DNA of 64,000 nucleotides from Saccostrea echinata (GCF_033153115.1 NW_026889805.1:6076001-6140000); one strand, 5' to 3'. Positions 14,880 to 22,527 are shown, counted from the stretch's first letter. Notes: a model not told the origin generated them from the sequence alone. Program-made: numbers and translations.

Positions 14880-17800
14880 AACAGGAAAGTAGAAAATATA
14901 TGGCTGAATTGGGAATCAAACCTAGAACCCCTGCATCACTAGTCAGGTGCTCTACCAACTGAGTTACCCAGATCAATGTCCTGCTGGGCCCAAACCATTA
15001 CAGAAATAATATATTTATTATGCCCTGATATATTCTGAAGAAAACCTTTATTTGTCTGTCAAAACATTACTCAAGATTTATTGTTGCCACTGTTTATACT
15101 TCTTATCTTTAGTATAAATAAGTTGTGTATTCAAAATCAACACATGCCCCTGATTGGCTGTAATTTCGAGAATTCACTGAATTTGGTGGTAGTTTGCTTT
15201 ATATTTAAATTATTTTGCAACATAGGCTTTTAAAAAGCATTTAAAAAGTATTTCAATAAACAAAAAGAACAGATTAAATTTATTAGAAAACAAACTTTTT
15301 ACTGGTGTAAATGAAGTTTGAAAAACTTATGGTGTTGTGTGTGACATTTTGGGCAAATTAACATAGTACTGAAGAAGTTGCCTATCCTGTTAGTATATAG
15401 GTCCCTGCTAATATCCCTCCAATATTCATGATTTTTAACCTAATTAGACTAAGGGCAATAAGCACAACATCTCCATTGCCATATTGTTGATGCTTGCAGA
15501 CTTATGAACTGGTCATAGCACCAAATGTGATGGGAAGGGAGAAAATATGACAGACAATTAAGACCAGGATTCGAACCTGGGTCCCTTGAACTCTAGACAG
15601 GTGCTCTAACAACTGAGCTATCTGGTTATTTATGTCTGCCAATTTAACTTGCTTGGTGCCACAAAAGGAATAAAGAATACCATGAGCCAAGGTCAGATAT
15701 GTAATTTGAAAGTATAAATTCTTTTCATGCAATAAACTTGTTCACTCTTTGAACAAACTTTCCATTAATGTCCAGAAACCAAGTATAAACATGTTATATA
15801 ACATGTTGCGTAAACATGTTAATCAGAATAATTGTATTTTTATTTCAGATGAAAGCTGTATTCTATCAATTTGCACCAGATCAAATTATAAACTTGGCTA
15901 TTTACTAATATCTCTGTGGTGGCAGCTTGAATAAAATTCAAGCTAGCCTCCTGATATCAATCAACAGATAGTGTGGATTTTTTATAAGCAATGACTTCCT
16001 TAAACTTACCTCACACCAAACTATCAAACTGTGGTTTATGATGGTGTATATTTCATATCAAACAAGTCCAATCTGTCGGTAAAAATGTCCTTACTTGTGC
16101 CAATGTTTAAAAAAGTTTCTCATGAGTCATGGCTAGTTCTTCATATACTTTAATTTCAATAGGGTGTTAAATATTATCCCTTGTGGCACTTTTCATCTTT
16201 ACATCATTCCTAGTATGACAGTGTGGTTCATTATCTTTTATTTGTGACAACTTTAGAAGCTGCATAAAAATGTAAGGTTTATAAATTATTAGCTAATTAT
16301 TTTATCTTGATTATTCAGGGTCCAGAATTGCTGGAGAAAGCTGGTGGTTTACATGAGTTTATGAAATGGGACAGAGCTCTTCTAACTGTAAGTTGTACCA
16401 AGTTTATGAAATGGGACAGTGCTCTTTTAACTGTAAGTTGTACCAAGTTTATGACATGGGACAGGGCTCTTTTAACTGTAAGTTGTACCAAGTTTATGAA
16501 ATGGGACAAGGCTCTTCTAACTGTAAGTTGTACCAAGTTTATGAAATGGGACAGGGCTCTTTTAACTGTAAGTAACTGTGATTAGTCATGATCTTTCTCT
16601 GCTTAAGAATGCATGGTTTTTAAATTGTTATTGTATAAAGACATACATTTGTATGAACTATAATGCGAAGTAAAATAATGACATCATCTAAACCTTATAT
16701 TTTATGTATATCTTAATTTTGATGCAGCAATTTTGCCCTCCATGTACAAATGATTTTAAATAATAAATGATGATGTCTAAAAATAACTATGATTAATATT
16801 GAGCTATAAGCTTCCTGTCTGAAATGTCTCTTTTGGTGGCATTCAATCAGAACTCTTTGTCAGTCATGTAAATGAAATGCAACTATTCTGACATTATATG
16901 AAATTAAATCATTACCTGTTGTGGTAATGTGTGTTGTAGGACAGTGGAGGCTTTCAGATGGTGTCTCTCCTAAAACTGGCGGAAATCACAGAAGAAGGAG
17001 TGAAATTCCAGTCCCCCCATGATGGGTCAGAGATGATGTTAACTCCAGAACACTCAATACATATACAAAATGCCATAGGTAACTAACTTCAGACCAGAAT
17101 GCCATAGGTAACTATCTTCAGAAGATAATGCCTTAGGTAACTATCCTCAGACCATAATGCCATAGGTAACACTCCTCTGAAGATAATGCCATATGTAACT
17201 ATCCTCACACCATAATGCCATATAGGTAACTATCTCAGGGTTCTCCATCATTTCAAATTTAACTGTGGCGCAAGACTTACGTGAAGTGTTAAATTTCACG
17301 GTCATTTTGCAACCGAATTCGCGAGGACACAGAGACATCCCCCCCCCCCACACACACACACACCAAGGTACACGCGCTATTATAAATAAATATTAGCTAT
17401 AAGTATCTGAAAATAATAATACAAGAAATAACGAAGTTCGAAGTGTTTAACCCTGATTAAAAAAACTAGTGTTCATTAAACGACAGAGGAAATTCTGGTA
17501 GGTCACACTTGTATTCAAGCTTTCATTCATATAAATATATTGTATTTGCAACTTTCGGTCTCAGTTGACTTTAGTATCGTAAAACTTCTGATTTAGAAAA
17601 ACACTTTGGAAATTCTAAAGTCATTAAATACTATTTTTATGGATTATTTATATTAATTTTTCAACATTACAACAATACACGATTACGATACATGTGCTAT
17701 TTGATTCACATTGACAAATCAATATAAGTTAGACGTGATTACCTTGAGTAAAGCTAGGTAATTAATTACCCTAGTATTAAACATTTAATTTGCAATTATC

Positions 17801-20800: not shown

Positions 20801-22527
20801 TGACACCTCGTAGTAGGCGGTGCTATTTATCAACTCGCTTTTCTCTCATTGGTCCTCTGGTACAAGTAACTTACACAATAGATATTAATTGGTTAGCTGT
20901 AAATACACTCACAGTTTTTATTCACTCGGGGCTCCGCCCCTCGTGAATGAAAAACTGTGAGTGTATTTACAGCTAACCAATTAATATCTATAGTGTAACT
21001 ATAACTTACTCTATACGTATACAGAGTGTCATACATAACTAAACACAAACCACTCCACACATATACAGAATGTCATACATAACTAAACACAGACCACTCC
21101 ATACATATACAGAATGTCATACATAACTAAACACAGACCACTCCACACATATACAGAATGTCATACATAACTAAACACAGACCACTCCACACATATACAG
21201 AATGTCATACATAACTAATCACAGACCACTCCATACATATACAGAATGTCATACATAACTAAACACAGACCACTCCATACATATACAGAATGTCATACCT
21301 AACTAAACACAGGCCACTTCATACATATACAGAATGTCATACCTAACTGAACACAAACCACTCCACACATATACAGAATGTCATACATAACTGAACACAG
21401 ACCACTCCATACATATACAGAATGTCATACCTAACTAAACACAGGCCACTTCATACATATACAGAATGTCATACATAACCAATCACAGACCACTCCATAC
21501 ATATACAGAATGTCATACCTAACTAAACACAGAATACTTCATTTATATATGTTATAACATTTACACACAAATCTCCAAGAAAAATAAACAAGAGGCTCAG
21601 GGGCCACATTGCTCACCTGAGCACTGTGGCTAGGAAAGAAGCAAAAATCAGTTTAGTATTAAAATGCTTAAATGCATAAGTGGTCCCGACCTACCCCTAA
21701 AAGGGAGGGGGGGGGGGGTTATGATTTCAACAAAATTGAATCTACACTAACTAAGGATGCTTACACATTTTTTTTTACTAACTGTAACTTTTTCCCTACA
21801 AGTTTAAACTTTCATTTTGGCCCCTACCTACCCCTGAGGGTCATGATTTGATCAAACTTGAATCTACACTATCTGAGAATGCTTCCATATAAATATGACC
21901 AATCAAGACTTTGCTGTTCTTGAGATGAAGATTTTTAAAGATTTTCCCTATGTATTCCTATGTAAAACTTTGATTGCCCACTGTGGCCCCACCCTTCCCC
22001 CAGGAGTCATGATTTGAAGAAATTTGAATCAACACTACCTGAGGATGCTTCCATATAAATATGATCAATATTGGCTTTGTTGTTCTTGAGAAGAAGATAT
22101 TTAAAGATTTTCCCTATGTATTCCTATGTAAAACTTTGATCGCCCACTGTGGCCCCACCCTACCCCGGGAGTCATGATTTGAACAAACTTGAATCAACAC
22201 TACCTGAGAATGCTTCCACATAAATGTGACCAATCATGGCTTTGTTGTTCTTGAGAAGAAGGTTTTTAAAGATTTTCCCCATGTATTCCTATGTAAAACT
22301 TTGATCACCCACTGTGGCCCCACCCTACCCCTGGGGGTCATGATTTGAAAAAAACTTGAATCTACACTACCTGAGGATGCTTCCACATAAGTTTCATACT
22401 TTCTAACACAGTGGTTCTTGAGAAGAAGATTTTTGAAAGATGCCATAAATTTTTCATGAGTTCGCAATTATCTCCCCTTGGAAGAAGGCGTGGCCCTTCA
22501 TTTGTACAAAATTGAATCCCCTTCATC

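Follow-up and report, generated by a model that had tools for sequence, protein, structure and literature searches.

The minisatellite in intron 3 of the oyster gene QTRT1 probably arose from a 44-nt piece of the exon 3 donor junction and then diversified in a way that was likely neutral, with the spliceosome likely keeping to the first donor throughout. Its units lie head to tail at a single locus, and the first of them crosses a genuine exon-intron boundary, as indicated by alignment, by the open reading frame and by a spliced contig. New here is the observation that, as judged from sequence, QTRT1 carries three junction arrays, in three of its eight introns, and that such an array also occurs in 14 of the 369 introns inferred for dyneins and myosins. 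The intron 3 array is real and of an ordinary kind, though its history is unusually layered, and the frequency of such arrays in the genome is a lead worth following. All coordinates, unless prefixed with a locus number, refer to the window, the whole 64,000-nt stretch of Saccostrea echinata DNA that was analysed.

Host gene and structure of the intron 3 repeat

Exon 3 matches the Pfam TGT family (PF01702, E 4.6e-15; Pfam TGT positions 80-125), and all eight of the exons scanned match TGT in order (the gene has nine; exon 2 lay outside the scan). Given the first donor of exon 3, the nine exons join into one open frame of 397 aa, and all eight introns are GT-AG. We take this member of the TGT family to be QTRT1, the queuine tRNA-ribosyltransferase catalytic subunit. 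Exon 3 has one copy in the 923-Mb assembly, in which a second copy was searched for and found to be absent. As originally predicted, read-through past its donor soon meets a TAA, which translation places at 17084-17086, so that any donor later than the first would give a premature stop.

Intron 3 is 5,737 nt long. When cut at the position equivalent to the junction, its array consists of 35 29-mers, 11 41-mers, 18 44-mers and 6 transitional units. TRF located arrays of period 29 at 17069-17238 and 18095-19025, of period 41 at 19067-19527, and of period 44 at 19620-20048 and 21008-21533, which is where the original prediction had put them. The record of about 4.5 kb that it described does consist of repeats from the exon junction, but only in part: two transposon insertions account for about 1.8 kb, and the repeat itself for about 2.65 kb. 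The features are as follows, with a slash marking the junction position in donor motifs.

16940..17078, + strand: exon 3, source of the repeat (Pfam TGT, single copy, spliced contig cover)
17041..17084, + strand: putative 44-nt founder, made of exon -38..-1 and intron +1..+6, with the true donor AG/GT at 17078/17079 (gap-free alignment to the 44-mer)
17079..17235, + strand: 29-mer block A, 5 units, nearest the present junction (TRF, unit alignment)
17084..17086, + strand: in-frame TAA, included in the mRNA if any later donor were used (translation of the read-through)
17236..18094, unstranded: non-autonomous DNA transposon, 859 nt, with 13-nt terminal inverted repeats and a 6-nt target duplication (inverted arms)
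18095..19020, + strand: 29-mer block B/C, 30 units, AG/GT kept in 22; the last 8 form a homogeneous sub-block
19021..19522, + strand: a single transitional unit followed by 11 41-mers, of which the first has GT and the later ones begin AT
19523..19723, + strand: five diverged transitional units, three of them starting with GT
19724..20056, + strand: 7 units of 44-mer block A, with the 5' half of a transitional unit that recurs
20057..21006, unstranded: recent high-copy element (HINE-like) of ~950 nt, carrying subterminal inverted repeats as well as a 3' palindrome
21007..21540, + strand: 3' half of the split transitional unit plus 44-mer block B, 11 units
22816..22894, + strand: exon 4, joined to the first exon 3 donor in one spliced contig

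Satellite-like arrays of 166 nt also occur in intron 1 (12880-14559) and intron 3 (21818-22390) and are very abundant in the sequencing run described below; they are presumably a known element-borne oyster repeat.

An independent sequencing run, a single run of uncertain type that we guessed to be RNA and that is rich in genomic repeats, gave 10 contigs on 16250-20050 at depths of 2-6. Over 17.8 kb the run was mostly dispersed repeats, and array stretches lacking cover are uninformative. One contig (depth 3.5) passes from the first donor of exon 2 (16387) to exon 3, and from the first donor of exon 3 to exon 4. It shows two differences in exon 3, both at third codon positions, and its loose end departs from the start of exon 4 at one letter in 30. 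These contigs are blind to rare isoforms and to transcripts removed by decay; the sole spliced transcript seen uses only the real signal, suggesting that the copies, like those of a number of human genes, likely do no harm and are simply carried along. In a further contig exactly 865 nt are missing, the length of the first transposon and its duplication, and an allele lacking this transposon therefore exists. Other contigs match pieces of the 29- and 41-mers, and the array is therefore no assembly artefact; pieces of both families are present in this second sample, and none of its contigs spans the whole array.

Descent from the exon 3 junction

That all three families descend from the junction of exon 3 with intron 3, the core of the original prediction, was borne out by alignments to the exon that beat those of dinucleotide shuffles. 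The 44-mer matches exon -38..-1 without gaps at 30 of 38 positions, while the best match elsewhere in the window reaches 23/38, and it differs from the founding unit at 9 of 44. Relative to the 44-nt unit, the 29-mer lacks 15 nt and the 41-mer lacks 3. Single units were compared with exon 3 alone, using 1000 dinucleotide shuffles each: the score was reached by 0/1000 and 0/1000 shuffles for two 44-mers, by 3/1000 for a 41-mer, and by 6, 20 and 18/1000 for 29-mers. Intron +7..+17 repeats exon -38..-28 at 9 of 11 positions, and the first 29-mer is thus in the same register. The transitional units that had been said to link the families were also found, six in all.

The monomers proved to be confined to intron 3 of QTRT1. 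DNA searches of the whole 923-Mb assembly with each family, which skip common words, matched only this intron, and in exact-pattern searches 5/5 and 13/13 matches fell at the same locus. Dispersed or element-borne satellite DNA was excluded as a candidate, as these searches placed the monomers at one locus and not at many unlinked loci.

The proposed succession from 29- to 41- to 44-mer had to be given up. The longest unit, the 44-mer, is the complete one, so 29-41-44 is no birth order, and a tree built on 60 distinct rows gives no firm order for the families (support of 99 for the 41-mer clade, a weak 71-72 for the 44-mer clade, 50 for the 29-mer clade and 65 for a long-unit clade). Distance to the present junction grows outward by block (0.12, 0.17, 0.22, 0.32 and 0.27-0.30; shared columns for 0.12), and diversity within blocks drops outward (0.15, 0.16, 0.07, 0.07 and 0.06). 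We infer from these distances that the distal blocks may be recent expansions of old, diverged founders. The two 44-mer blocks, A and B, have consensus differences at 0 of 44 positions.

The three families could instead represent separate duplications of the junction through pre-existing microhomology, and not deletions from one ancestor. Support between families in the tree is weak, and the 11-nt likeness of intron +7..+17 to exon -38..-28 could predate the duplication, both of which fit such a history. We nevertheless consider it unlikely: the 41- and 44-mer consensus sequences differ at only 6 of 41 positions and have several changes in common, two changes of the 44-mer are also present in the first 29-mer, and all units keep one register.

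Transposons and a proposed history

The 859-nt transposon scored at about 40 other places in the assembly, with 5-6-nt duplications at 6/6 copies examined. The ~950-nt element has arms at 20054-20068 and 20852-20866 and a palindrome at 20871-20998; its copies elsewhere are 94-99% identical, and the flanks of 6/6 copies indicate insertion after TT with no target duplication. Compared with the features of HINEs (non-autonomous Helentrons) given in the portion of PMC7492417 used here, the insert at 20057-21006 appears HINE-like in its subterminal repeats, palindrome, TT site and lack of a duplication. The transitional unit that it interrupts recurs at the start of the first 44-mer block, which places the higher-order duplication before the insertion.

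Under the favoured reading of descent from one 44-nt piece, a tandem duplication of exon -38..+6, for which the alignment is direct and the mechanism conjectural, would have founded the array. A 15-nt deletion would then have produced the 29-mer and a 3-nt deletion the 41-mer; the alignment displays both gaps, and their order is presumed. Single diverged founders may next have been amplified into homogeneous blocks, so that a +1 G>A change, arising once or twice, reached about 30 units, as suggested by within-block distances of 0.06-0.07 against 0.22-0.32 to the junction. A higher-order duplication would have made two blocks of 44-mers, and the two transposons, as their nesting shows, landed afterwards. 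Splicing presumably uses the first donor, as seen in one contig and in human F7, and rare use of a later donor would result in a premature stop and, probably, in decay.

Junction arrays in the rest of the gene and in other genes

The two further arrays in QTRT1 cross a donor and an acceptor.

16356..16573, + strand: separate 45-nt array, 4.8 copies, across the exon 2 donor (4/4 decoys keep GT; open frame)
25620..26343, + strand: separate 63-nt array, 11.5 copies, across the exon 6 acceptor (11/11 decoys keep AG; open frame)

In the exon 2 array, each later donor would add 15 residues with no stop, and the one contig that covers it uses the first. The 63-nt units are 99% identical, with no RNA cover there, and a decayed copy of this array lies near 25546. 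Further along the window, at 59015-59160, decayed acceptor-like motif copies lie upstream of an exon matching Ldl_recept_b. An array in two families, which resembles a donor array, occurs 83 kb downstream at L111:301-940, with 41-nt units beside an open frame followed by 28-29-nt units; most of its units keep GT, and the long units come first, the reverse of the order in QTRT1. At L108:7180-7807, a 44-nt array of 14 copies extends from the end of an open frame, with GT in 13/13 decoys. The open frames before the L108 and L111 arrays match no Pfam family, and both arrays are therefore counted as candidates only.

The presence of three junction arrays in QTRT1 led us to survey other genes. Exons were identified with profiles from fetched proteins, and junctions were assigned from GT/AG, frame and a dynein-trained weight matrix, so that all survey junctions are predictions that stand without RNA confirmation. 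For the dynein heavy chains, 232 of 364 adjacent exon pairs were resolved in 16 genes; one gene and two likely duplicate loci were left out, and the N-terminal halves lay outside the annotation (a second protein search gave only short fragments). For the myosins, in which the test was fixed beforehand, 24 loci were taken up and one near duplicate was dropped before counting, with 137 of 183 pairs resolved.

Under the strict test, 6/27 dynein arrays span a junction against 3.3 expected, which is not significant (P=0.10). An inclusive count, with calls made by eye, gave 14/56 against 5.3-9.3 expected (P 0.0006-0.07), and a score filter with P=0.02 was set aside as chosen after the fact. Among the myosins, 9/43 arrays span a junction against 3.05 expected (P=0.0025). 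Both families together gave 15/70 against 6.35 expected (P=0.001); with the host intron taken as given, the expectation is 8.0 (P=0.007). A junction array is carried by 14 of the 369 introns inferred, about one in 26. Arrays that do not span a junction also lie near junctions, 19/55 being within 60 nt against 9.8 expected (P=0.002), which speaks against a process particular to junctions. The automatic spanning rule missed at least three visible cases, and the null model includes young transposons unmasked. Older, steadier exon edges, together with intron interiors diluted by young transposons, may explain part of the excess.

Array load differs strongly by gene, and several surveyed genes have none. 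One myosin gene (L159-L161) carries at least four or five junction-spanning arrays, with units of 65, 55, 67 and 59 nt among them. In another (L185-L186, minus strand), 1.2 kb separate the two blocks of a 32-nt donor array, which recalls the array that a transposon splits in QTRT1. We tentatively suggest, with slightly more doubt than belief, that exon edges in this oyster are hotspots for the birth or persistence of minisatellites, which would occupy ~4% of introns at about twice the random rate, with their decoys unpurged.

State of the copied splice sites

The original prediction spoke of dozens of decoy donors among the 29-mers. GT is kept in 28/35, as AG/GT in 26 and within the exact 9-mer of the true donor in 20, which puts the number at about two dozen. 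Donors in the long units had been called dead, and GT is indeed missing from all 31 block anchors: those of the 41-mer block read AG/AT in 11/11, and those of the 44-mer blocks have GT in 0/20 (AC/AT in 15, AC/CT in 4, and 1 out of register). However, a few of the long or transitional units still have GT: at 19069, 19565, 19606 and 19634, and at 19950 inside a 7-nt insertion.

It had been suggested that selection may have removed GT from exon-rich units; such units would otherwise supply rival donors or pseudo-exons. The 31 anchors are what recommends this idea. In addition, the 41-mer clade (support 99/92) and the 44-mer clade (66-71) each have a unit with GT at their base, so that GT was perhaps lost on two occasions; two separate losses, if they occurred, would mildly fit selection. 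Human CBS offers a precedent in a second-repeat substitution said to prevent alternate splicing, according to a title cited in PMC1557585. We nonetheless regard selection as improbable here. The 31 anchors amount to one or two events, and the chance that 9 fixed differences over 44 sites strike GT is 37%. The units without GT lie 2-4.5 kb off, whereas the nearest decoys are intact, and the GT sites of the 29-mers change at the rate of their neighbours (0.100 vs 0.094). To account for the loss in the 41- and 44-mers, one or two mutations would be enough if amplification spread them. The 44-mer change could have gone by way of a CpG (-1 G>C, then CG>CA), and no intermediate unit for this path was found.

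Decoys elsewhere tell against selection as well. GT or AG is kept in 127/136 decoys of 27 other junction arrays, including units with 40-60 exon nt: 85/91 in 18 arrays (14 dynein, 2 QTRT1 and 2 candidates) and 42/45 in 9 myosin arrays. These were counted by a unit-by-unit walk, which ended after 4 units at L111 and after 1 in myosin array m22. Exon-rich units retain the site in 5/5 copies of a 59-mer, 4/5 of a 61-mer, 5/6 of a 53-mer and 12/12 of a 93-mer. In each of the two surveys, decoys depart from the invariant dinucleotide at a rate of 0.044, against 0.11 for the sites that flank it; since the copies are non-independent and the flanks may overrun partial units, we read these rates only as the absence of a purge. 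As the other two QTRT1 arrays have 45- and 63-nt units, we considered a frame rule, by which units of 3n keep their sites, and rejected it: only 4/18 and 0/9 of the surveyed units are 3n.

The decoys might conversely be functional, as a tunable switch to a poison isoform or a sink for U1, with copy number setting the level of QTRT1. Twenty decoys have the 9-mer of the true donor, every decoy comes after an in-frame stop, the dinucleotide is somewhat better retained than neighbouring sites, and human 6-16 and CBS use their first one or two pseudo-sites (PMC1557585, in the portion consulted). We give this proposal little credence too: the first donor is the one joined in the only spliced contig, the array is interrupted by a transposon that is polymorphic, and arrays in all three unit phases across unrelated genes bear no sign of design. 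Recursive splicing at the AG/GT cores, raised by their presence in 26/35 29-mers, is extremely improbable, because no acceptor precedes the GT: scored as an acceptor, only 1/29 AG/GT decoys exceeds the 5th percentile of the real ones (232 inferred acceptors), the median is 1.1 compared with 8.0 for real acceptors, there is no pyrimidine tract, AG/GT merely copies the exon end, and the intron has 5,737 nt. Neutral diversification of a copied junction continues to be our preferred reading.

Comparison with known systems

By the features compared in this analysis, the QTRT1 intron 3 array appears to work like, and to belong with, the 37-bp VNTR in intron 7 of human F7, in which the pseudo-sites, though functional, go unused (Borensztajn et al. 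2006, PMC1557585, here and below as far as the consulted portion goes). In both, the first unit lies across the exon-intron boundary and identical donor copies follow behind it; in F7 the most upstream donor is used (PMC1557585), as it likely is in QTRT1, where one contig shows it. The F7 array has 5-9 uniform units with 4 exon nt (PMC1557585), whereas that of QTRT1 has about 64 units of three lengths with up to 38 exon nt, and, unlike F7, it has distal blocks without GT and two transposons interrupting it. The same source names the human junction minisatellites of CBS intron 13, interferon-inducible 6-16, LMNB2 and PDGF as similar; these resemble QTRT1 in their reiterated exon/intron junction, and CBS also has a unit with an altered donor. 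The use of the first one or two pseudo-sites in 6-16 and CBS has no counterpart in the one QTRT1 contig.

The human internal tandem repeats of De Grassi and Ciccarelli 2009 (PMC2812944), in the portion consulted, include boundary minisatellites that likewise lengthen introns, but some of them create introns or add residues, whereas the QTRT1 intron pre-exists and its frame is unchanged. Tandem repeats borne by Helentrons and HINEs in the Pacific oyster (PMC7492417, portion consulted) are similar in being dispersed short arrays in an oyster genome, where QTRT1 has a HINE-like insert; unlike them, the 29-, 41- and 44-mers are confined to a single locus and derived from an exon, and the element landed in them.

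A literature search that took in few subscription papers and no supplements turned up no study that had surveyed junction-spanning minisatellites across a bivalve genome. The QTRT1 locus alone is an elaborate case of a known human phenomenon, and the survey is the part that could matter. If the surveyed genes are typical, the oyster genome would contain thousands of natural, length-variable assays of splice-site competition, with the QTRT1 intron as an unusually deep record of several families. In-frame arrays such as those of 45 and 63 nt also carry a practical warning, as they can mislead oyster gene prediction and read mapping. Arrays of the F7 type have so far been treated as single-gene curiosities; at the frequency suggested here, they would permit a genome-scale test of whether the exon-proximal site wins, at donors and acceptors alike, and of why repeats gather at exon edges.
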